From the IMG/VR virus record IMGVR_UViG_2554235297_000015: a stretch of 32,474 bases of DNA; one strand, given 5' to 3'. The notes under the pieces were generated by a model. It was not told where the DNA came from, did not search any database, and was given only the letters and a program-made list of their open reading frames with translations. Of this stretch, positions 8,245-31,539 are shown one piece after another. Source of the DNA: a virus (lineage: Duplodnaviria > Heunggongvirae > Uroviricota > Caudoviricetes). Every line of letters begins with the position of its first letter. Position 1 is the stretch's first letter. The position numbers and the translations under genes are program-made.

Positions 8245-8614
8245 AGCCGGTCAGGCGTATCTGGGGTGGGATGATGCCCTTTATCGCCAGACGCTGGCCC
8301 GCCTGACCGGTAAAACCAGCACCACACGCTGCAATCTCGATGAACTGCGCATCATCCGGGAATACATGCACGAACAGGGATTCCCGCGCAAGGCACCCGC
8401 TGGTAAAGGTCGCCGCCCTCGTGTTGCAATGAGCAGAAAATCAGTATTATCCAAAATTGAAGCGTTGCTGGCTGATGCCGGTCGTTCCTGGGCGTATGCA
8501 GAAGGACTGGCATCTCACATGTATAAGCAACATGTGATCGAATGGCTGACGGATGAACAGCTTTTTGGAGTGATGGTGGCGCTGGTTAAAGATTCAAGAA
8601 GGAGAAATCAATGA
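8216..8614 (+). CDS. gemA: GemA-like protein (Mu gp16 family)
   Basis: N-terminus MLKKMIGAIKAGQAYLGWDDALYRQTLARLTGK resembles Mu GemA. GAGGAT 7 nt upstream of ATG 8216. The ORF track opens the same frame earlier at 8117. Confidence 0.75.
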   Translation: MLKKMIGAIKAGQAYLGWDDALYRQTLARLTGKTSTTRCNLDELRIIREYMHEQGFPRKAPAGKGRRPRVAMSRKSVLSKIEALLADAGRSWAYAEGLASHMYKQHVIEWLTDEQLFGVMVALVKDSRRRNQ

Positions 8615-9087
8615 TGAAAAAATGGTTGTTTTGTTTAGTAGGGGTTATTTTCTCTTGTTCTGTGCTGGCACAGACAGAGGAACAGGCGCAAAAGGAACTG
8701 AAACGTTATCAGGATATGAAGCCATTGGCTGAACAGATGCTTCGGGAAAGTGGAAAACTTTATTACGCTATGCCAGAAGCTGCATCGCAGTATCAGCAGG
8801 GAAATATTGAAGAGTGGAAGAATATCAAAAAAGGACTAAAACAACTGGATGAACAGGCCAGTAAACTGGGGGACGACCCGCTTGATCCTGTGTATGGTTC
8901 CTGCATAAAAATGAAAAACCAGCTACAGGATTACTGGTCTAACGTTATCAGGGATGACAGGCAGTTTCTGGAGCGTTCAAGAAATCAGTTTAAAGAATAT
9001 CGTATGGATTGTTTTGATTCGTTTGTTTTTGGTAAAGAGCAAATAGAATCAAGAAAAGGCCTGGTTATTCTAGACCTGACTAAATAA
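8611..9087 (+). CDS. secreted or periplasmic protein of unknown function, 158 aa (AT-rich moron)
   Basis: AAGGAG RBS. N-terminal signal peptide MMKKWLFCLVGVIFSCSVLA with an AxA-like cleavage site before QTEE. Coding sequence is clearly more AT-rich than the flanking genes. Its own terminator follows. Confidence 0.7.
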   Translation: MMKKWLFCLVGVIFSCSVLAQTEEQAQKELKRYQDMKPLAEQMLRESGKLYYAMPEAASQYQQGNIEEWKNIKKGLKQLDEQASKLGDDPLDPVYGSCIKMKNQLQDYWSNVIRDDRQFLERSRNQFKEYRMDCFDSFVFGKEQIESRKGLVILDLTK

Positions 9088-9187: not shown

Positions 9188-9655
9188 ATGCAGACCTTCA
9201 GTGAAACAGATCTTCGCGATGCGCAGGCACTGCTGCCCGATTCCGTGCAGCAACTGATTAGCGTGATTGGCTTCCCCGCCCTGACCCGGTTGATTCGTTC
9301 TTTTGGTGGCGTGACGTTAAGCGGTAAAACCGGCGTACACGCCGAACGCACCGGCGGTGTCCATGCCCTGTTACATGACGTGCTCACCGAAGACGAAATC
9401 AACAAACTGATCCGCTTTCTTGGCGGTGCTCCGTTTTACATTCCCCGTTGCGATCATGCGTTACGTGCCCTGCGTAACACCCGTTTTATGGCTGATTTAC
9501 AGCAGCATGTAAAAGACGGATGCTCACACCGGCAGGCGCTGGCACTGCTCTGTCCCCGTTACGGCATTTCAGACCGGTACGCATGGCAGCTGATACACCG
9601 ACGACAAAAACAGACTTCGCTGAAAAGCCCCACCCAGGTGGGGCTTTTTGATTAA
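9188..9655 (+). CDS. Mor/C-family transcriptional activator (Mu middle/late activator family)
   Basis: 155 aa. C-terminal HTH-like segment ...RQALALLCPRYGISDRYAWQLIHRR typical of Mor/C proteins. Located between gemA and the lysis genes as in Mu. GGAGA RBS. Confidence 0.7.
   Translation: MQTFSETDLRDAQALLPDSVQQLISVIGFPALTRLIRSFGGVTLSGKTGVHAERTGGVHALLHDVLTEDEINKLIRFLGGAPFYIPRCDHALRALRNTRFMADLQQHVKDGCSHRQALALLCPRYGISDRYAWQLIHRRQKQTSLKSPTQVGLFD
9627..9649 (+). terminator. rho-independent terminator overlapping the last codons of the Mor/C gene
   Basis: GCCCCAC ccag GTGGGGC stem followed by TTTTT. Confidence 0.6.
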
Positions 9656-9979: not shown

Positions 9980-9997
9980 GGGGTGCTGAACTCCCCC
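9980..9997 (+). promoter_or_regulatory. dyad element copy A (GGGGTG ctgaa CTCCCC), upstream of the lysis cassette
   Basis: Imperfect copy of the GGGTG-CTGAA-CACCC dyad also found at 18138 and 30056. Overlaps an 8 bp GC hairpin at 9966..9985. Confidence 0.4.
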
Positions 9998-10142
9998 AGC
10001 AGTACCCACCACACCAGACCGTTTACCCTGTCCACTCAGACCACAAGGCACCTTAAGGGATAGCGCCCTGCAAAAGGCTTTTGTGCCTTTGACAGGGTGT
10101 TATTTACGGGCCGTCAGTGGCTCAGATTTACAGGAGAAACTC

Positions 10143-10535
10143 ATGTCTGAACCCTTATCAGGCGGCGGAGCTGTGGCAGTCACCATCGGTGGTGCCAGTG
10201 TGTTTGGCCTTCTCACCAATACCGATTTCGGGGTCGTGGTGGGCGCGTTTGCCGGGGCGCTTTTTGTTGTCACTCAGCAGAAAGAAATCCCGGTATGGCG
10301 AATGGCTATTCACCTGCTCGTCGCGTTTGTGGTTGGCGTTCTGGGGGCTGGCGTGGCTGCGTCACTGATGCAGTGGCTGACCCACTACAACGACAAACCG
10401 CTTGATGCATTGTGTGCGGTCGGTGTCTCGGCGTTATCCATCAAGATACTGACCTTTCTTTATCAACAGGAAATTTCATCGCTGTTCGGCCTGTTTTCCA
10501 GACTGCGCGGCGGAGGGGGTGGAAATGGAAAGTAG
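10143..10535 (+). CDS. holin-like membrane protein, 131 aa
   Basis: AGGAG with a 6 nt spacer before ATG 10143. Three to four hydrophobic helices. Immediately upstream of the endolysin. Confidence 0.6.
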   Translation: MSEPLSGGGAVAVTIGGASVFGLLTNTDFGVVVGAFAGALFVVTQQKEIPVWRMAIHLLVAFVVGVLGAGVAASLMQWLTHYNDKPLDALCAVGVSALSIKILTFLYQQEISSLFGLFSRLRGGGGGNGK

Positions 10536-12302: not shown

Positions 12303-13043
12303 ATGCAAAAACAGATTATTGGTAACGCAACGTTGTATTGCGGTGATGTTCTTGATGTGCTGCCGGCGTTATCCGAACGTTTTGATGCCGTCATTACCGA
12401 CCCGCCTTACAGCAGTGGTGGCACACATAAATCAGACCGCAGCATGGCCCCTTCGGACAAGTATGTCGGTCACACCCAGTATGCCGAGTTCAGCGGGGAT
12501 AACCGCGACCAGCGCAGCTGGGCATACTGGAGCACCCTGTGGATGTCCGGGGCTGCCCGCCTTGTGCGCCCCGGTGGTTATGTCATGGTGTTCAGTGACT
12601 GGCGACAGCTTCCCACCATGACCGACGTTTTTCAGGCCGGTGGTGTGCTGTGGCGTGGTCTTGTTGTCTGGGATAAAACGCAGGCTTCCCGTGCGCCACA
12701 CACCGGCTATTTCCGGCATCAGGCCGAGTATGTGGTCTGGGGCAGCAACGGAAAACTCGACAAATGCCCGCACGGTGGCCCGTTCCCGGGTGTGATTACG
12801 CAGCGCGTTGTCCCGTCCGAAAAACTGCATATGACGGCAAAGCCAGTTCAGTTGATGGCCGAGCTGGTTAAACCGCTGGCACCGGATGCGCACGTTCTCG
12901 ATCCGTTTATGGGAAGCGGCACCACCGCCATCCCTGTACTGGCCCGTGGCGGACGGTTTACCGGCATTGAAATGACTAACCAGTATTTTGATATCGCCTG
13001 CGCACGTCTCGAAAAAGCGCAGGCAGAAGCAGCGCAGGTGTGA
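12303..13043 (+). CDS. orphan DNA methyltransferase, beta class (motif IV DPPY before motif I FMGSGTT), probably N6-adenine
   Basis: 246 aa. DPPY at about residue 33, DPFMGSGTT at about residue 200. No restriction endonuclease gene adjacent. Confidence 0.85.
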   Translation: MQKQIIGNATLYCGDVLDVLPALSERFDAVITDPPYSSGGTHKSDRSMAPSDKYVGHTQYAEFSGDNRDQRSWAYWSTLWMSGAARLVRPGGYVMVFSDWRQLPTMTDVFQAGGVLWRGLVVWDKTQASRAPHTGYFRHQAEYVVWGSNGKLDKCPHGGPFPGVITQRVVPSEKLHMTAKPVQLMAELVKPLAPDAHVLDPFMGSGTTAIPVLARGGRFTGIEMTNQYFDIACARLEKAQAEAAQV

Positions 13044-13044
13044 C

Positions 13045-14685
13045 GTGGCAAAACGTAAACTTTCCATTAAAGAGTTTCAGAGAAGCTTACAGGAGTACAT
13101 CGCCAACCTCCGCCAGACCATTGAGGCTGAATGTCTGGGGTTCGATGTAAACCCGCAGGCCACACAGGCCCGCCGGGCGGCAGTCTGTGACCCGGTGACG
13201 GGCTACGATTATTTTGTCGAAAACTATTTCCCGCACTACGTCCGCAACCCGGCAAAAAGCGAGCTGCATAAATACCTGTTCAGCCGTCTGCCACAGGTTG
13301 TGGCAAGCCCGGACCCGGAGAACGACGCCATCGCCGCGCCCCGTGGTGAAGCAAAATCCACGCTGGTGACTCAGCTGTTTACCCTGTGGAACATTATCCG
13401 GGCCATTAAACATTATCCGGTCATCATTATGGACAGTATCGACCAGGCTTATCCGATGCTGGAAGCCATCAAGGCTGAACTGGAATTTAACCCCCGTTTA
13501 AAAAACGATTTCCCGGAAGTGTGCGGACAGGGGCGCGTCTGGCGTATGGGGACCATCGTCACGGCCAACAATATCAAGGTGACCGTTGCTGGTAGTGGTA
13601 AAAAACTGCGTGGGCTGCGCCACGGTCCGTACCGTCCTGACCTGGTTATCCTCGACGACATCGAGAACGACGAGATGGTGCGTAGCCCGGAGCAGCGCGA
13701 CAAGCTGCATGACTGGCTTACCAAAACCGTGATGCCGCTGGGCGAGGCTGGCGGTAAAACCGATATTATTTATATCGGAACCATCCTGCATTACGACTCC
13801 GTGCTGTCGCGCACACTCAATAACCCGATGTGGAAAACAGCCCGCTTTAAGGCTGTTATTCAGTGGCCTGCCAACATGAAACTGTGGGACGAGTGGGAAG
13901 AACTCATCCGCAACAAACAGCCGGAAGCAGCGGAGGCACTTTACCGACAGAACGAAGCCGACATGCTCGCCGGGTCGGTGGTGTCATGGGCGGCGCGTCC
14001 CCTGCTGGCGCTGATGAAAATCCGTGTCCGTGACGGTCATGACACCTTTGATTCTGAATACCAGAACGACCCGGTCAGCGGTGAAGATGCGCTGTTTGCG
14101 GGCTGCATTAAGTTCTGGGTTAACCGTCTTGATGAATGGGTGTTTTATGGTGCTGTTGACCCCAGTCTCGGGAAGAAGAATAAAAACCGCGACCCGTCGG
14201 CCATTCTCGTGGGGGGCTTTAACCGTTTTACCGGCATTCTGGATGTGGTTGAAGCCGATATCCGCCGACGCCTGCCAAATAAACTTATCGAAGACGTGAT
14301 TAAGTATCAGCGGGAATACCACTGTCTGTGCTGGTCGTTTGAGTCCGTCCAGTTTCAGGAGTTTCTGCGCACCGTGCTGGTTGAGCGTTCGGCGGCGCTG
14401 GGCGTTCCGGTTCCGGCGCTGCCGGTCATCCCGCTGGAGGATAAAGCGCTGCGTATCGAATCCCTTCAGCCGCATATGGCCAACGGCCTGATCCGCATCA
14501 GTCCGGCACATCAGACGCTGATTGACCAGCTGCGCCACTACCCCAAAGCCGACCACGATGATGGCCCGGACTGTCTGCACATGCTGTGGACGCTGGCGGT
14601 ATCGCGTAGCGCAAAATTTCAGATACACACCCCACGCAGCACCGGGCGTGACCGTGGCGGGCGTTTTGGTTCAGGAGGATGGTAA
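13045..14685 (+). CDS. terminase large subunit, Mu gp28-like
   Basis: About 546 aa from GTG 13045, two bases after the methyltransferase stop. The ORF-track frame opens at 12988 inside the methyltransferase gene. Size and position match the Mu large terminase. Confidence 0.8.
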   Translation: MAKRKLSIKEFQRSLQEYIANLRQTIEAECLGFDVNPQATQARRAAVCDPVTGYDYFVENYFPHYVRNPAKSELHKYLFSRLPQVVASPDPENDAIAAPRGEAKSTLVTQLFTLWNIIRAIKHYPVIIMDSIDQAYPMLEAIKAELEFNPRLKNDFPEVCGQGRVWRMGTIVTANNIKVTVAGSGKKLRGLRHGPYRPDLVILDDIENDEMVRSPEQRDKLHDWLTKTVMPLGEAGGKTDIIYIGTILHYDSVLSRTLNNPMWKTARFKAVIQWPANMKLWDEWEELIRNKQPEAAEALYRQNEADMLAGSVVSWAARPLLALMKIRVRDGHDTFDSEYQNDPVSGEDALFAGCIKFWVNRLDEWVFYGAVDPSLGKKNKNRDPSAILVGGFNRFTGILDVVEADIRRRLPNKLIEDVIKYQREYHCLCWSFESVQFQEFLRTVLVERSAALGVPVPALPVIPLEDKALRIESLQPHMANGLIRISPAHQTLIDQLRHYPKADHDDGPDCLHMLWTLAVSRSAKFQIHTPRSTGRDRGGRFGSGGW

Positions 14686-26862: not shown

Positions 26863-28211
26863 TGGGCTGGGCTGAAAACCTGCAAAACGCTTCCTTTCGT
26901 GGCGTGCAGTTTGAGGTGCTGAATACTGACGAACAAATCAGCCGCGACCATGCGGTCTATGAATACCCGTTTGTTGACGGGGCGGATTTGCACGACCTCG
27001 GACGCAAGGCGCGACCGTTCCGCATGACGGCGTTCCTGTGGGGCGATGACTATGAATATAAACTCGGGAAACTGACCGCCGCCCTGGATGAAGGCGGCGA
27101 TGGTGAACTGATTCATCCGGTTTATGGCTCTGTGCCGTCGGTGATTGTGACCGGCTACAGCATCCGCCATGACGCAGAAAGCCCGGACAGCTGCACCATT
27201 GACATGAGTTTTCTGGAAAACCGCACCGGTAGCGCGTTGTTCAGCACCCCGTTACCGGAGCTGTTCGCGCAACAGTTGTTTGATGAACTGGACACTTTAC
27301 AGGCGCGGTTAAGTGATTTTTTTGATGCCGTTACTGCACCTTTAAATACCGTTAACAGCATGATTAAAAAAGCCCAGACAGTGCGTGCCACACTGGTGAA
27401 TACCCTGCTGTCGTTCAAAAGTGATTTTGTCTCCACTGTCGATAATATCGTGTCACTGGCAGGCGAACCCGGAAAATTTATCAATGAACTGGCAGAGGTG
27501 CTGGAAATCCACACATCAGATGTCGGGCAACCGGTGCAGGTTCTGCAACGTGTTGATTCTGCCACCCGGACCGGGTTGGCAGGAGAGACGACCGTCGCCA
27601 GTTCTGCGACAGTGATGAACTGCTGGAATAAGGTCATCACTGATATGGATGAATTTGTTGCGTTGCCTGTTACCCTGGTCAGTGGCGATAAAGTAGCGGA
27701 GGTGGCACTTCCTGTGGATGCCTCGCCAGACGATGTGCAGGATGTGAAAGCAGTTTACGCAACACAGGCCGCATCTGAACTGGCCAGTGTTGCAATGGCG
27801 ATACTGGTTGATGATGCGCAGTCAGAACAGCTTATACCGGCGGATATCGGGCGACTGGTCGGGGATGTGCGCACCCGCTTACAGGCTGTCATCACGCTGT
27901 TCCGTGAACGCTATGAAGGCGAACGCGAACGGATAACCGAAACCGCATCACCACTGGGGCTGATGTACCCAGAAATCATTCAGAGCATGAAGAACGTGGC
28001 GGCATCCGTGCAGGATGTCGGCCTGCTGGTTCTGTCACGCCGCCCACCGCTGACGCAGAAACAGGTGCAGGCGGACAGCTGTCTGCTGTTGCTGGCGTGT
28101 CAGTGGTACGGTGATTACAGCCGTGCGGCAGAGCTGCAACGTCTGAACCCGCAGCTGCGTGACCCGAACAACATAACCGCCGGGATGGTGATTAATGCCT
28201 ACGCAAAATAA
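26862..28211 (+). CDS. DNA circularization protein, Mu N (gp43)-like
   Basis: 449 aa. N-terminal region resembles the Mu N DNA-circularisation domain. Follows the tape measure gene. Confidence 0.8.
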   Translation: MGWAENLQNASFRGVQFEVLNTDEQISRDHAVYEYPFVDGADLHDLGRKARPFRMTAFLWGDDYEYKLGKLTAALDEGGDGELIHPVYGSVPSVIVTGYSIRHDAESPDSCTIDMSFLENRTGSALFSTPLPELFAQQLFDELDTLQARLSDFFDAVTAPLNTVNSMIKKAQTVRATLVNTLLSFKSDFVSTVDNIVSLAGEPGKFINELAEVLEIHTSDVGQPVQVLQRVDSATRTGLAGETTVASSATVMNCWNKVITDMDEFVALPVTLVSGDKVAEVALPVDASPDDVQDVKAVYATQAASELASVAMAILVDDAQSEQLIPADIGRLVGDVRTRLQAVITLFRERYEGERERITETASPLGLMYPEIIQSMKNVAASVQDVGLLVLSRRPPLTQKQVQADSCLLLLACQWYGDYSRAAELQRLNPQLRDPNNITAGMVINAYAK

Positions 28212-29406
28212 CGACGACAAAATCAGCCTGGTCATTGCCGGAAGGTCGCATTCTGACTGGAGCAGTTATCGTATTGACAGCGATTTCCTGAAAGCCGCCG
28301 ACGGCTGGCAGCTTCAGCTGGGACTGCCTGAAAAGGTGTTCCCGGCGGATATCGTCCGGGGCGCGCCGGTCCGGTTGCAGGTGGGAGACGAGACGGTGCT
28401 CAGTGGTCGCGTGGACAGCGTGCGCCGCAGTGTATCCCGTCAGAGCTGCACGCTGGCCCTGTCCGGGCGTGATGATGCTGCCATTCTGGTGGACTGTGCC
28501 GCGCCGGTGTTCAGCGCCAATCAGCTGACGCTGGACGAGGTCATCGACAGGATAGTCAGACCACTGGGGATACAGCGCATCCGTATACAGGCGTCCGGCG
28601 TGTCACGTAATGACAAAGTTGTTATTGAGCCTGGGATGCGTGCGTGGGATGCACTGGCCAAAGCTGCCGCCGGTCGCGGCTTATGGCCGTGGTTTGAGCC
28701 TGACGGGACGCTGGTTGTGGGTGGCCCTGACTACACCACCACGCCGGTGGATACGCTGATTCTGAAGCTGAACGGCACCGGGAACAACGTGATGGAGCTG
28801 GACGATACCCGGTCCATTAACGGCTGTTTCTCCGAACTTACTGTGCTGGCCCAGAGCCACGCCCGCCGCGCAGACAGCAAGAAACAGGTGGCCGTGGTGC
28901 CGCTGGATATCTGGAACGAGGACGGCAGCGTGCGCACATTGTCCGGGCAGGACAGCGGTAATACGGACAGTGGCCAGACAGGCATTCATAACATGAAAGC
29001 CGTTGCCACCGACCCCACCGTGGATTATTACCGCCCGCAGATAATCACCCAGGGCGACACCAGCAATCTGGAGCAGGTGAACTGGCGCGCAAAAAAAATG
29101 ATGAGTGATGCCCGCCTGTCGGGGCTGGATATCGTCGCGCTGGTTGCAGGTCATCGCACGGCAGATGGTGTTCTGTGGCAGCCCGGCCAGCGGGTGCGGA
29201 TTGTCAGCGAACTCCACGGCATTGATGCCATCTTTTTCCTGATGGGGCGTGAGTTCAGCGGAGGCCGGAACGGGCAGACAACCCGGCTCCGCTTTAAGGA
29301 GGACGGCGTGTGGATACCTGATGCCTTCCCGCGCGAGAAGAAACGCCATCACCGCAGGGGCAAAAAGAAAAAAGAGGTCGCCATTGTTAAGGTCTGGGAG
29401 AAATGA
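28195..29406 (+). CDS. baseplate hub/tail protein, Mu P (gp44)-like
   Basis: 403 aa, conserved position. Confidence 0.8.
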   Translation: MPTQNNDDKISLVIAGRSHSDWSSYRIDSDFLKAADGWQLQLGLPEKVFPADIVRGAPVRLQVGDETVLSGRVDSVRRSVSRQSCTLALSGRDDAAILVDCAAPVFSANQLTLDEVIDRIVRPLGIQRIRIQASGVSRNDKVVIEPGMRAWDALAKAAAGRGLWPWFEPDGTLVVGGPDYTTTPVDTLILKLNGTGNNVMELDDTRSINGCFSELTVLAQSHARRADSKKQVAVVPLDIWNEDGSVRTLSGQDSGNTDSGQTGIHNMKAVATDPTVDYYRPQIITQGDTSNLEQVNWRAKKMMSDARLSGLDIVALVAGHRTADGVLWQPGQRVRIVSELHGIDAIFFLMGREFSGGRNGQTTRLRFKEDGVWIPDAFPREKKRHHRRGKKKKEVAIVKVWEK

Positions 29407-30056
29407 TGTGGGACAAAGTTAATCAACGCGTACAGCAGGCACTGGCCGCCGTTCGCCAGGCATTCAGGGTGGTGACCGGTACGGTGGACAGTTCGACCAA
29501 AGTACAGCTGCTTCAGCTTAACGGGCTGGCTGGCGAACAGCTGGACGGTGCGGAGTATTTTCAGCATTACGGCCTCACCACATCCCCGCCGCCCGGCTCA
29601 ATGGGTATTGCCGTTCCGCTGAACGGCAATACCTCCCATACTGTCGTGGTGGCCACAGAGCACGGCGCATATCGTCTGACGGAACTGAAACCCGGGGAAG
29701 TGGCCCTGTATACCGATGAAGGCGCGAAAATCGTACTGAAGCGCGGACGGGTTATTGAAACCGAATGTGACGTTTATCGCGTGAAATGCAAACGCTACGA
29801 GGTTGAGGCAGAGGAGAACGCCACATTCACGACACCGTTACTGACAGCCAGTGACAGGCTGACGGTGGAAGGCAAAATCACCGGCAACGGTGGCATGGCC
29901 ATCAGTGGAGGCAAGGGATACACTGCCACCTTTGAAGGCAATATCAACCATGTGGGTGGAGTGATTACCTCCGTTGACGTCACCATTAATGGCGTTAAAA
30001 TCGGAACGCACAAACATCCAACCCCACACGGCATGTCTGACACGCCGGTTAATTAA
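29403..30056 (+). CDS. baseplate assembly/spike protein, Mu gp45-like
   Basis: 217 aa, ATGA overlap with P. Confidence 0.75.
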   Translation: MMWDKVNQRVQQALAAVRQAFRVVTGTVDSSTKVQLLQLNGLAGEQLDGAEYFQHYGLTTSPPPGSMGIAVPLNGNTSHTVVVATEHGAYRLTELKPGEVALYTDEGAKIVLKRGRVIETECDVYRVKCKRYEVEAEENATFTTPLLTASDRLTVEGKITGNGGMAISGGKGYTATFEGNINHVGGVITSVDVTINGVKIGTHKHPTPHGMSDTPVN

Positions 30057-30070
30057 GTGCTGAACACCCT
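30056..30070 (+). promoter_or_regulatory. dyad element copy C (AGTG ctgaa CACCCT), between gp45 and gp46
   Basis: Starts at the last base of the gp45 stop codon. About 40 nt upstream of the gp46 ATG. Confidence 0.4.
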
Positions 30071-30109
30071 CACCTGATTCTGACCTGTCCATGCTGCCAG
30101 ACTGGCGGC

Positions 30110-30460
30110 ATGGACCAGACGATTTCACCTGCAACCGGCGACTACGAACGCCGTCGGATTTATACCCTTCATAACGCGGTTTATCTGCGACTGGCGACGC
30201 CGCTTGGCAGTTACTGGGCGGATGCGTTGCTGGGGTCACGCCTGCACGAGCTGAAGCGGGAAAAAGACGTTTCCCGTGTTCATAAGCTTGCGGCGCAGTA
30301 TGCCAGCCAGGCACTTCAGCCCCTGCTCGATGACGGGCGGGCAAAATCCATTACCGTTGACACAAAACCGGGGCAGCGCGGCTGGTTGTTGCTGTTAATC
30401 ACCGTCACGGATAACGCGGGCACACCGCAGACGTTTGAACACCCTGTGAGGATTATGTAA
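30110..30460 (+). CDS. baseplate protein, Mu gp46-like
   Basis: 116 aa, precedes the baseplate J-like gene. Confidence 0.7.
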   Translation: MDQTISPATGDYERRRIYTLHNAVYLRLATPLGSYWADALLGSRLHELKREKDVSRVHKLAAQYASQALQPLLDDGRAKSITVDTKPGQRGWLLLLITVTDNAGTPQTFEHPVRIM

Positions 30461-31539
30461 TGCCGTTTCCTGTTCCGGGCGTTGCTGAAAACACAGAACG
30501 CCAGCTACGTGATATCGCTAACGCCCTGCCGGGCGAAACCATCGACACCGGCGCTGACAGCGATTACCGCATTCGTGCAAATGCCGTATCCGGCGTGGCG
30601 GACGGACTGTATATGCATCAGGGGTGGATACTCCGTCAGGTGTTTCCTGATACGGCAGACCCTGAATATCTGGAGTTGCACTGCCGCACGCGCAATGTTT
30701 TTCGTAAAAAAGCAACGGCCTCATCCGGTCCGGCAGTGATTACCGGCACACCCGGTAAGACGCTGCCAGCCGGTGCGGAAATTCGTGGTGAAGGTGTCAG
30801 CGTGGCCACCGCAGCAGACTGCACCGTCGGTGATGAAGGCAGCGCAGAGGTGACGGTAAAAAGCACTGCCACGGGTGCACAGACGAATGCATCCACGACG
30901 CAGACGGCAACGCTGGTCAGCCCACCTGAAGGCATCAACAGCACGGTGACGATTAAATCCCTGACCGGCGGAACGGACAGGGAAAGCGACGCCGACCTGC
31001 TGGCGCGTTATCTGGATATTCTGCGCAGGCCGCCCGCTGGCGGTAATAAATATGATTACAAACGCTGGGCGCTGGAAGTGGATGGCGTTACGTCTGCGTA
31101 TGTGGAGCCGTTGCGTCGTGGACTGGGGACGGTTGATGTGGCCATTACGTCAGCCAATGACCTCCCTTCGCAGGAACTGATTAATGCCGTGCTGGCACAT
31201 ATTGAGGAAGTCCGCCCGGTGACAGCGAAGGACACGATGGTGCTGGCCCCGACGAAAAAAGCCGTTGATTTCGTTGTCCGGGTAAAAACCAGTGGTCTTA
31301 CTGTTGAACAGATAAAACCACAGATAACTGAAGTTATCACGGATTTTATGAACCGGCTGGAGCCGGGGCAGGAATTAATTATTTCACAACTGGAAACTCA
31401 GATTTCATTAATTTCTGGCATCAGTGACCGGCGAATTATTATGCCGTCAGATAATGTAAAAGCAGTTGTCAATGAATCCACATGGGAGTGGCTGCGTCCG
31501 GGGAATATTGATATCCAGCCATTTCCCCGGGAGAGTTAA
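30460..31539 (+). CDS. baseplate J-like protein, Mu gp47-like
   Basis: 359 aa, ATGA overlap with gp46. Confidence 0.8.
   Translation: MPFPVPGVAENTERQLRDIANALPGETIDTGADSDYRIRANAVSGVADGLYMHQGWILRQVFPDTADPEYLELHCRTRNVFRKKATASSGPAVITGTPGKTLPAGAEIRGEGVSVATAADCTVGDEGSAEVTVKSTATGAQTNASTTQTATLVSPPEGINSTVTIKSLTGGTDRESDADLLARYLDILRRPPAGGNKYDYKRWALEVDGVTSAYVEPLRRGLGTVDVAITSANDLPSQELINAVLAHIEEVRPVTAKDTMVLAPTKKAVDFVVRVKTSGLTVEQIKPQITEVITDFMNRLEPGQELIISQLETQISLISGISDRRIIMPSDNVKAVVNESTWEWLRPGNIDIQPFPRES

Follow-up and report, generated by a model that had tools for sequence, protein, structure and literature searches.

In which part of a Mu-like tail module a late promoter lies, and how it would serve the gene behind it, is the question raised by a short motif, AGTGCTGAACACCCT (30056-30070). 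The window, i.e. the whole stretch of DNA analysed here (32,474 nucleotides), represents a Mu-like prophage of E. coli O127:H6 E2348/69. The first base of the motif is the last base of the stop codon of gp45/V (baseplate spike; 29406-30056, + strand, ORF start 29403/29406), the last gene 5' of the element, and the motif is contained in the 53-bp gap between this stop (30056) and the ATG (30110) of gp46 (baseplate wedge protein, Pfam GP46; 30110-30460, + strand). A sequence-only reading of the window had placed a conserved dyad in this gap and had contrasted it with Mu, in which the tail promoter lies 5' of P; if the dyad marked a promoter, the tail operon would be divided differently from that of Mu. 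The statement about Mu is correct (PP is located at Mu 27299, inside N, with about 390 bp between it and P), and no gap separates gp45 from gp46 in Mu, where the two genes overlap. In the window, tight overlaps join the tape-measure gene, N, P and V (26862/26862, 28195/28211 and 29403-6/29406). We propose that 30056-30112 is the third late promoter in this prophage, belonging to the same kind as Mu Plys, PI and PP, and name it P46; its predicted transcription unit opens with gp46 and continues through gp47 and gp48 into the tail-fibre genes. A probability of about 0.75 is assigned to this explanation, which is detailed below.

Motif copies, recognition dyad and activator gene

Two further copies of the motif, read as sister promoters, are found on the + strand of the window: one before gene I (GGTGCTGAACACCCT, 18140-18197, with the -10-like CATCAT at 18182-18187 and, after a further 7 nt, the ATG at 18195) and one before the lysis cassette (GGTGCTGAACTCCCC, 9982-10029, with the -10-like TACCCT at 10024-10029). 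Between the lysis copy and the holin ATG at 10143 lies a leader of about 105 nt, which contains a Shine-Dalgarno sequence. Compared with the gap copy, the I copy (18140-18154) has one mismatch and the lysis copy (9982-9996) three; matches to AGTGCTGAACACCCT with up to three mismatches were observed four times, versus 0.79 expected by chance. Common to all three copies is CTGAAC-N32-xAxxxT (starts 9986, 18144 and 30060), the hexamers after N32 being TACCCT (lysis), CATCAT (I) and CAGACT (gp46). When both strands of the window were scanned with a weight matrix built from sites of other genera only, with 200 shuffles as control, the site at 30060 was the top match (29.0 bits; shuffles: mean maximum 2.4, largest 16.3), which confirms the motif in the gap as real. 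The matrix scan also bears out that N, P and gp45 have no comparable element before them. The sole candidate for a Mu-like promoter inside N, ACTGGTGAATACCCT at 27392 (three mismatches, CACTGT at N32), scores low on the family matrix and is lost in relatives of 85% identity, in which the core has become GTAAAT and the hexamer is gone. A partial copy, TTGAACACCCT (30435-30445), at the end of gp46 lacks a -10 hexamer at N32 and is taken as chance. A mom promoter was not found in the sequence examined.

Regarding the symmetry of the element, the motif noted by the sequence-only reading is conserved, whereas the symmetry it had described (GGGTG-N5-CACCC) is not. The latter is perfect in the I copy only, is reduced in the gap copy to weak GTG/CAC arms of 3 bp, and involves positions (-53 to -51 and -45 to -43) which are not kept complementary in the relatives, these having CCCACTGAACCCC. 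The dyad conserved in the family, offset from it by about 4.5 bp, is TGAA-N4-TTCA, embedded in the consensus ACCCACTGAACCCCTTCAnCTGA. Across 94 aligned sites TGAA is kept at -49 to -46 and TTCA at -41 to -38; C-39 is invariant (94/94) and T-40 occurs in 88 of the 94, whereas G-48, although also invariant, lies inside the CTGA used as alignment anchor, so that only C-39 is independent. The gp46 copy of the window is imperfect, with TGAA (30061-30064) and CTCA (30069-30072), and the right half-dyad is degenerate in the lysis and I copies of the window as well (TGAActccCCCA and TGAAcaccCTCC, respectively). The centre of the dyad, 30066.5, corresponds to -43.5 when counted from the A of the gp46 ATG, a numbering that rests on the predicted start (+1 = A of ATG). 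The distance of 31.5 bp from the dyad centre to the start of the -10 hexamer is independent of the start and is the same at Mu Pmom, whose dyad centre is also at -43.5 by our own count on the Mu sequence. Motif copies, matrix and family consensus together delimit AGTGCTGAACACCCTCACCTGA (30056-30077, + strand) as the predicted binding region of a Mor/C-family activator.

The -10-like hexamer CAGACT (30098-30103, + strand; A at its second and T at its sixth position) begins 32 nt past CTGAAC, ends 6 nt before the ATG and is weak; this weakness counts against the promoter reading, as does the degenerate right half-dyad of the lysis and I copies. Of the -35 candidates, TGATTC (17-bp spacer) matches TTGACA at one of six positions and CTGATT (18-bp spacer) at three of six; a typical -35 hexamer was not found at the gap element, and the site is not called by a sigma-70 consensus scan. 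On inspection, readings of CTGAAC ... TCTGA as an ECF/sigma-E-type or a -35/-10 promoter did not fit in spacing and were not conserved.

A single gene for a Mor/C-family activator is present in the window, at 9188-9655 (+ strand). Its 155-aa product matches Pfam PF08765 (E 1.7e-6; 28.5 bits, cut-off 24.9), carries the signature FLGG..FYIPRC, resembles Mu C (E 3e-4) and Mu Mor (E 5e-4), and is 33-41% identical to the single activators of SuMu and of Klebsiella phage ST405-OXA48phi1.1; the RefSeq label is 'Mor transcription activator family protein'. This product is presumed to activate all three promoters. The ORF 8611-9087, suggested as a Mor homologue by the place of mor in Mu, showed neither a Pfam match nor similarity to Mor or C. 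The product of this ORF resembles a secreted protein.

Conservation in related prophages

The comparison with related prophages proposed in the sequence-only reading was made as an unbiased search of about 9.6 kb of tail genes per locus. Of 48 distinct loci from relatives, 45 had their best match to the 16-mer of the I promoter at 40-70 nt before gp46, and this placement is kept even where V and gp46 are separated by an insertion of 0.66-2.1 kb. In those sequences whose fetched part covers all three places, the motif was found before the lysis genes, I and gp46 in prophages of Trabulsiella, Kosakonia, Symbiopectobacterium, Pectobacterium, Serratia and Paludibacterium and in Klebsiella phage ST405-OXA48phi1.1; no motif was found upstream of N or P in the prophages of these six genera or in the Klebsiella phage. 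SuMu has another motif, GGAA-N4-TTCC, again before lysis, I and gp46 (TATCCT, 6 nt, ATG at the latter); because this different motif occupies the same three places, the promoter site co-varies with the phage's own motif. In another group of relatives the predicted tail promoter is located directly upstream of N. A search for near-identical phages in a phage collection yielded none, the matches being fragments of tail-fibre genes only.

An xAxxxT hexamer ending 6-7 nt before the start codon was present at 50 of 53 gp46 sites (the spacing does not fit at the other three) and at all 44 I sites. The lysis-gene copies have xAxxxT at N31-33, with neither a hairpin nor a start codon nearby. Close E. 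coli relatives differ by 0-1 changes in the 53-bp gap and, by our own count, by about 12 in the adjacent last ~42 nt of V. The promoter reading of P46 is supported because the motif, the N32 spacing and the distance to the start codon recur before both I and gp46, and the condition set in the sequence-only reading, a promoter at the gap element, gains strong support from this comparison; P46 is very probably an activator-dependent late promoter for gp46.

Start codon, hairpin and rival explanations

A Shine-Dalgarno core (AGGA, GGAG or GAGG within -18 to -4) was detected at two of 53 gp46 sites and none of 45 I sites, versus 21 of 31 other late genes of the window. Because the hexamer lies 6-7 nt before the start codon and a Shine-Dalgarno sequence is almost always missing, a leaderless mRNA is suggested, and transcription starting at the gp46 ATG (30110-30112, + strand; predicted +1 = A 30110) is slightly favoured. 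The window and most relatives have an ATG start, the Klebsiella-phage group (L083, L099, L103, L105 and L108) a GTG. AUG is preferred as the 5'-terminal codon of leaderless mRNAs in E. coli and GTG is a poor substrate for leaderless translation there; the GTG of this group counts against a leaderless gp46 mRNA.

The start codon is part of a hairpin (inverted repeat GTCCATGCTGCCAG / CTGGCGGCATGGAC; 30087-30115, + strand), with the -10 hexamer at the apex and the ATG in the 3' arm. The folding energy is -24.9 kcal/mol (z -5.4; second estimate z -5.5). At each of ten positions 73-98% of the sequences pair, versus 30-38% for shifted centres, and the compensatory changes include ATG to GTG paired with CAT to CAC. 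G-T pairs outnumber A-C pairs by 32 to 9, a bias towards the sense strand; these pair counts refer to sequences, not to independent events. A-11 and T-7 do not covary and are invariant in 41/41 sequences. The hairpins of the I sites are weaker and less uniform, so the hairpin claim applies mainly to gp46 sites. A conserved sense-strand hairpin suggests that read-through RNA exists; as it implies that such RNA matters, the gap would therefore not be a clean separator of two operons.

In the mechanism proposed for P46, the motif, its spacings, the missing Shine-Dalgarno sequence, the covariation of the hairpin and the place among the genes are shown by sequence and comparison; that the activator binds, where exactly transcription starts and what the hairpin does are the steps which we infer. 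The single Mor/C-family activator (9188-9655) would bind the imperfect dyad TGAAcaccCTCA, centred at -43.5, and help sigma-70 RNA polymerase to use the weak -10 CAGACT without a good -35. Transcription would begin at, or within 1-2 bases of, A30110 of the gp46 ATG, and gp46, gp47, gp48 and the tail-fibre genes would be carried on a leaderless mRNA. The hairpin would form only in RNA entering from the upstream genes, in which it would bury the gp46 start codon that lacks a Shine-Dalgarno sequence, and efficient translation of gp46 would then depend on initiation at P46. Such masking of the gp46 start in read-through RNA is rather doubtful, taken by itself.

The covariation would also suit a transcript starting further upstream, at about 30080-30087, in which the hairpin of a leader of about 25 nt sequesters the ATG, opening of this hairpin controls translation in the way Com acts on mom mRNA in Mu, and the hexamer in the loop is not a -10. 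Such a leadered mRNA would agree with a conserved hairpin that includes the start codon, with the sense-strand G-T bias and, better than a leaderless one, with the GTG of the Klebsiella-phage group. Yet inspection of the relatives revealed no -10-like hexamer conserved at a fixed distance between motif and hairpin, A-11 and T-7 are invariant where covariation would be expected, xAxxxT is retained by lysis copies that have no hairpin or start codon nearby, and only +1 at the ATG puts the dyad centre at exactly -43.5, which together leave this explanation improbable. Even less probable is an element without any promoter, whose motif and hairpin act in RNA derived from upstream as a processing or stability site, or as a weak terminator or pause tuning the ratio of hub/spike to wedge/fibre proteins. 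N, P and V are needed in few copies, gp46-48 and the fibres in many, and a hairpin of this stability at the boundary between the two sets, with a G-T bias, would fit a role in RNA. However, the stem is followed by CAGACGATTTCACC, without a T-run, as opposed to an intrinsic terminator; a terminator scan of the + strand (29400-30700) found none, and Rfam covariance models gave no match with E <= 1 in 29700-30500. A role in RNA would also leave unexplained the identical motif before the lysis genes, where there is no hairpin, as well as the missing Shine-Dalgarno sequence and the fixed -43.5/-10 geometry of Mu C promoters.

An ordinary sigma-70 promoter in the 3' end of V (TTGACG-16-TAAAAT, 29974-30001), with the gap motif serving as an operator in its leader, could drive gp46 in principle; it matches the consensus at 10 of 12 positions, and the close E. 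coli lineage has kept it. The site is, however, part of a coding sequence, a scan of this length (1.3 kb) should yield about 0.8 matches of this quality by chance, and the more distant relatives (L092, L093, L095, L096, L100, L009, L011 and L003) all lack it and still keep the arrangement of motif, hexamer and ATG; a promoter at this place is therefore highly improbable as the source of gp46 transcripts. That the gap element is a functionless chance or relic copy would agree with the weakness of its -10 hexamer, but is effectively refuted by conservation, as the top-scoring site of the window is near-invariant beside a fast-changing coding region and keeps its place before gp46 across orders of bacteria (45/48 loci).

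Comparison with known late promoters and leaderless genes

To our knowledge, late transcription has been dissected for no member of this large family but Mu, whose map of four promoters is the annotation template for Mu-like prophages. Mu C recognizes a 16-bp imperfect dyad centred at -43.5 at promoters with a -10 hexamer and no -35 hexamer (PMC2582627), and Mu PP reads CATAACCCC ... TATCCT (primer sequence in PMC4461284). The window resembles Mu Plys, PI, PP and Pmom in having the activator gene just upstream of the lysis genes, motif copies before lysis, head gene I and tail, and an imperfect dyad at -43.5 which overlaps the -35 region and is combined with a recognisable -10 and no good -35; CAGACT is also similar to the Mu hexamers TAGACT (Plys) and CAAACT (PI). 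Unlike in Mu, the recognition sequence is TGAA-N4-TTCA in ACCCACTGAACCCCTTCA instead of TTAT-N6-ATAA / CATAAYCCC, the tail copy is placed in the V-gp46 gap instead of inside N, and a single Mor/C gene replaces the cascade of Mor, then C. The start codon follows 6-7 nt past the -10 without a Shine-Dalgarno sequence, whereas Mu lys and I apparently have short leaders with Shine-Dalgarno-like sequences (own reading), and a covarying hairpin spanning the -10 and the start codon is a further difference from Mu. The comparison suggests that Mu is not typical: most sampled relatives have the tail promoter before gp46 and another group directly before N, the relatives have one Mor/C activator and not two, and a start codon directly adjoins their I and tail promoters, without a ribosome-binding site.

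SuMu and ST405-OXA48phi1.1 share with the window the three positions (lysis, I and V-gp46 gap), the geometry and a start codon 6 nt past the -10. SuMu differs in its GGAA-N4-TTCC dyad and in having only a weak hairpin, ST405-OXA48phi1.1 in CTGAAG and the GTG start. No literature on the late promoters of these two phages, or on leaderless or late promoters in Mu-like phages, was found in a search of incomplete coverage.

For the broad Mu-like group a common design is put forward tentatively, as possible rather than probable: an activator at -43.5 would fire polymerase onto the start codon of a structural gene and a hairpin would gate translation of read-through RNA, the whole forming a portable module. 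In that design, leaderless mRNAs for I, gp46 or, in other lineages, N may be made in enterobacteria, where such mRNAs are rare; the choice of promoter, not a ribosome-binding site, may gate translation of baseplate-wedge and tail-fibre genes; and the module may be placed before N, inside N (Mu, leadered) or before gp46, depending on the lineage. If confirmed, the locus would provide a clean natural system in which to study how abundant structural proteins are made from activator-dependent leaderless mRNAs in E. coli, and a hairpin coupling promoter choice to translation. The arrangement may also serve as a rule for late promoters (the phage's own dyad, 31.5 bp to the -10 hexamer, 6-7 nt, ATG), which helps to choose the start codons of I and gp46 in Mu-like prophages.

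Outside this group, the lambda cI mRNA from the regulated promoter PRM is leaderless, as is the transcript of the C-protein gene of PvuII-type restriction-modification systems (C.PvuII). P46 is like both in its predicted start on the codon of a gene without a Shine-Dalgarno sequence at an activator-dependent promoter. It is unlike them in serving virion structural genes (I and gp46, and N in other phages), with the start predicted, and in the additional hairpin, which in read-through RNA would hide this start codon. In Mu mom, the start codon is buried in an RNA hairpin of the late transcript and translation depends on Com; gp46 has its start codon within a hairpin of a late transcript as well, but in the proposed mechanism the hairpin would be bypassed by starting transcription inside it and not opened by a protein.

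Prophage context and motif copies

The chromosome of E. coli O127:H6 E2348/69 (fetched as L001; L001 coordinate + 9299 = window coordinate) showed 100% identity to the window region, which is annotated in RefSeq as a Mu-like prophage. The annotated order is Mor-family activator, hypothetical gene, two holins and endolysin, followed by terminase, portal, F and G, then protease I and major head protein T; the tail genes are sheath, tube, tape measure, N (DNA circularisation protein), P (baseplate) and V (gp45, baseplate), after which come gp46, gp47 (baseplate J), gp48 and the tail fibres. Pfam matches were obtained for GemA, Mor, DNA_circ_N, GpP/gp44, Mu gp45, GP46, Baseplate_J and Mu gp48. A DNA methyltransferase gene (12303-13043) is located in the late region, with a DUF1804 gene on one side and the large terminase gene on the other; the sequence examined showed no com/mom-like module. 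To the right of the prophage, beyond the window (L001 25085-30116), a truncated eutC adjoins it, which suggests insertion of the prophage, by transposition, into the ethanolamine-utilisation operon. In the same stretch eutA is broken by a separate ISEc13.

The motif AGTGCTGAACACCCT is located at 30056-30070, its first base doubling as the final base of the V stop codon, in the 53-bp gap before the gp46 ATG (30110). The sequence-only reading, which had placed the motif in the V-gp46 gap behind overlapping N, P and V genes, is borne out by the coordinates and the gene map (overlaps were found among the tape-measure gene, N, P and V). Further copies are GGTGCTGAACACCCT at 18140, upstream of I (ATG 18195), and GGTGCTGAACTCCCC at 9982, upstream of the lysis cassette (holin ATG 10143). 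All three copies carry, exactly 32 nt past CTGAAC, a hexamer whose second base is A and whose sixth is T: TACCCT at 10024 in the lysis copy, CATCAT at 18182 in the I copy (ending 7 nt before the ATG) and CAGACT at 30098 in the gp46 copy (ending 6 nt before the ATG).

Two other motif-like sequences were rejected. TTGAACACCCT at 30435-30445, at the end of gp46 and just before the gp47 start (30460), matches the motif core at 10 of 11 positions, has no -10-like hexamer at N32 and is probably a chance match. ACTGGTGAATACCCT at 27392-27406 within N is followed by CACTGT at N32; it was ruled out as a counterpart of the Mu PP promoter, as it is not kept in 85%-identical relatives. The predicted leader of the lysis transcript (~105 nt) contains the inverted repeat AAGGCAC ... 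GTGCCTT (10046-10092). A/T repeats of the TTTTTAAAAGGGTTTTAAAAACGG type occur at 18060-18110, between G and I and ahead of the predicted I promoter, as well as in Mu (L002 17890-17960; annotated gyrase cut site at 17879), Haemophilus phage SuMu, Klebsiella phage ST405-OXA48phi1.1 and all enterobacterial relatives displayed; this region may be a conserved central strong gyrase site region.

Conservation of the gp46 element

Loci of 20 kb from other species were fetched from genome contigs with the major head protein as anchor, and syntenic prophages were found in Trabulsiella, Kosakonia, Symbiopectobacterium, Pectobacterium, Serratia and Paludibacterium, with tail proteins only 35-69% identical to those of the window. 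The comparison with related prophages envisaged in the sequence-only reading gave a uniform result: CCACTGAACCCCTTC was present upstream of gp46 in all of these prophages, and no motif copy was found in N or before P in any of them. CCACTGAACCCCTTC was also present upstream of I and of the lysis genes wherever the fetched stretches extend there, and the N32 spacing to the xAxxxT hexamer was unchanged. When a weight matrix built solely from the sites of other genera was scanned over both strands of the window, the gp46 copy was the top match with 29.0 bits (200 shuffles: mean maximum 2.4 bits, largest 16.3); the I copy scored 8.8 bits and the lysis copy was absent from the top list.

For the IMG/VR loci the tail sheath served as anchor, and tblastn was used to locate I, N, P, V and gp46, with start codons assigned automatically from the alignments. 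The 16-mers of the 90 bp preceding I were compared with the ~9.6-kb tail region of each locus. Of 48 distinct loci, 45 have the best match to any of them 40-70 nt ahead of the gp46 start (chance rate for a 30-nt target in 9.6 kb about 0.3%), IMG/VR and genome loci being phylogenetically non-independent. Five loci (L132, L155, L125, L161 and L110) carry 0.66-2.1 kb inserted between the V stop codon and the predicted gp46 promoter, including an IS3-family element plus a 174-aa ORF lacking a Pfam match (L132, 17218-19305) and a reverse-strand ORF of 361 aa, also lacking one (L155, 17474-18582). Since the motif remains 54-62 nt from gp46 even in loci with an insert, it belongs to gp46 rather than to the V end, and extra DNA seems to be tolerated ahead of the predicted promoter. 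The 53-bp gap shows 0-1 differences among close E. coli relatives, and the last ~42 nt of V roughly a dozen (manual count).

Start codon and hairpin

At 50 of 53 distinct gp46 sites and at all 44 I sites, 6 or 7 nt separate an xAxxxT hexamer from the start codon that follows. As sigma-70 RNA polymerase usually starts about 7 nt past the -10 hexamer, the predicted +1 is the A of the ATG. A Shine-Dalgarno core was found at 2/53 gp46 sites and 0/45 I sites, compared with 21/31 other late genes of the window; unlike the I and gp46 copies, the lysis copies have leaders with a Shine-Dalgarno sequence. We infer that the gp46 and I mRNAs are probably leaderless, a reading on which the GTG start codon of gp46 in the Klebsiella-phage group urges caution.

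Hexamer and start codon lie within a hairpin with arms at 30087-30100 and 30102-30115 (93% complementary; -24.9 kcal/mol, z -5.4); in a 101-nt context z was -5.5 and no shuffle folded equally well. All relatives' gp46 sites that were folded gave comparable hairpins (-15 to -24 kcal/mol), whereas those of the I sites were weaker. With the ATG as reference point, 41 distinct sequences were aligned; each of ten pairs, running outwards from (-12,-6) to -21 with the G after the ATG, was formed in 73-98% of them, for an overall 84% (30-38% with a shifted centre), and non-Watson-Crick cells comprised 32 G-T versus 9 A-C, these being counts of sequences, not of independent events, to which base composition may contribute. 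The G-T excess speaks more for an RNA structure of the sense strand than for a symmetric DNA cruciform. Compensatory types were observed at several positions (CG/GC/TG; CG/TA/TG/GC), and the pair of the first start-codon base changes from T-A to C-G where ATG becomes GTG. A-11 and T-7 are invariant (41/41), which fits sequence-specific -10 recognition rather than mere pairing. By inspection, a sub-group of relatives (e.g. L126, L131, L138) keeps motif, hexamer and ATG without an obvious hairpin, so the hairpin is common, not obligatory. Because its 5' arm is upstream of the predicted start, it would form only in RNA coming from V; on the simplest reading it would silence the Shine-Dalgarno-less gp46 start in read-through RNA, and it could also act as a processing site, in 3'-end protection or as a pause.

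Other explanations of the gap element all leave unexplained the fixed dyad-to-hexamer geometry, which is common to the hairpin-less lysis copies. A transcription start upstream of the hairpin is unlikely on this account, and an element acting only in RNA, with no promoter, somewhat more so. A sigma-70-like site inside V as the driver of gp46 is improbable: the match at 29974-30001 is strong (TTGACG-16-TAAAAT, 10/12, ~110 bp before gp46), but conservation of the site stops at the close E. coli lineage, in which it is part of coding sequence (3' end of V). A chance copy is the least credible of all. The gap element is very probably an activator-dependent late promoter, for which a leaderless gp46 mRNA is predicted. 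No earlier description of these promoters was found in a literature coverage that was incomplete and could have missed one.

Activator and comparison with other phages

The sole Mor/C-family gene in the window (9188-9655) encodes a product with the FLGG..FYIPRC signature, nearer to the activators of SuMu and Klebsiella phage ST405-OXA48phi1.1 (33-41% identity) than to Mu Mor or C. The ORF at 8611-9087, after GemA and in the position of Mu mor, was rejected as Mor, being unrelated to it; it starts with the signal-peptide-like sequence MMKKWLFCLVGVIFSCSVLAQ. With this single gene and an unrelated ORF at the mor position, the cascade may have one activator tier, compared with Mor and then C in Mu; a single activator was also found in the two phages named.

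SuMu repeats another motif, GTGTGGAAG-N3-CTTCC, containing the dyad GGAA-N4-TTCC, before the lysis gene, before I and in the 102-bp V-gp46 gap, where TATCCT comes after it at an unchanged distance, followed by 6 nt and ATG. ST405-OXA48phi1.1 has ACCCACTGAAGCCC at lysis, at I and in the V-gp46 gap. With each phage's own motif at the same three places, the gap sequence tracks the late motif of each phage, as activator sites would.

Mu C binds to an imperfect dyad of 16 bp whose centre lies at -43.5 and which overlaps with the -35 region, with a footprint from about -30 to -55, at late promoters that have -10 hexamers and no typical -35 (PMC2582627). In the Mu sequence, the Pmom dyad TTAT-N6-ATAA is centred 31.5 bp before the hexamer TAAGAT, and in Plys, PI and PP the conserved 9-mer CATAAYCCC precedes the -10 hexamer by 20 nt. 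Aligning 94 sites from before I and gp46 in the window's clade gave the consensus ACCCACTGAACCCCTTCAnCTGA; the alignment was anchored on CTGA, whose four positions are invariant by construction, and independent signal comes from the other side of the dyad (C-39 94/94, T-40 88/94, A-38 68/94). The conserved symmetry is TGAA (-49..-46) / TTCA (-41..-38). The dyad GGGTG-N5-CACCC (centre -48) of the sequence-only reading did not hold as the conserved element: it occurs solely in the E. coli lineage, where the I copy alone shows it well; CCA at -53..-51 and CCC at -45..-43 are found in most relatives. The TGAA/TTCA centre is 31.5 bp before the hexamer, or at -43.5 if +1 is the A of the ATG, and in this geometry the sites of the window's clade match the Mu C promoters.

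The position of the tail promoter differs. Mu has it within N, about 390 bp ahead of P, with overlapping gp45 and gp46. V and gp46 also overlap or nearly abut in a second IMG/VR group (L153, L150, L154, L160, L159 and L136), which has a promoter-like module directly upstream of N (in L153 at 14255-14332): GGAA-N4-TTCC or a similar dyad, next TAACCT, TAGGCT or TAATCT between G+C-rich repeats, and lastly 6-10 nt and ATG. This would be a third position for a predicted tail late promoter; no such module is present upstream of N in the window's clade, where N has an ordinary Shine-Dalgarno sequence. The proposal that the tail genes are divided otherwise than in Mu is supported and forms part of a wider pattern: with a position within N in Mu and predicted ones before N in the second group and before gp46 in the window's clade, the tail late promoter is, as judged from these sites, evolutionarily mobile.
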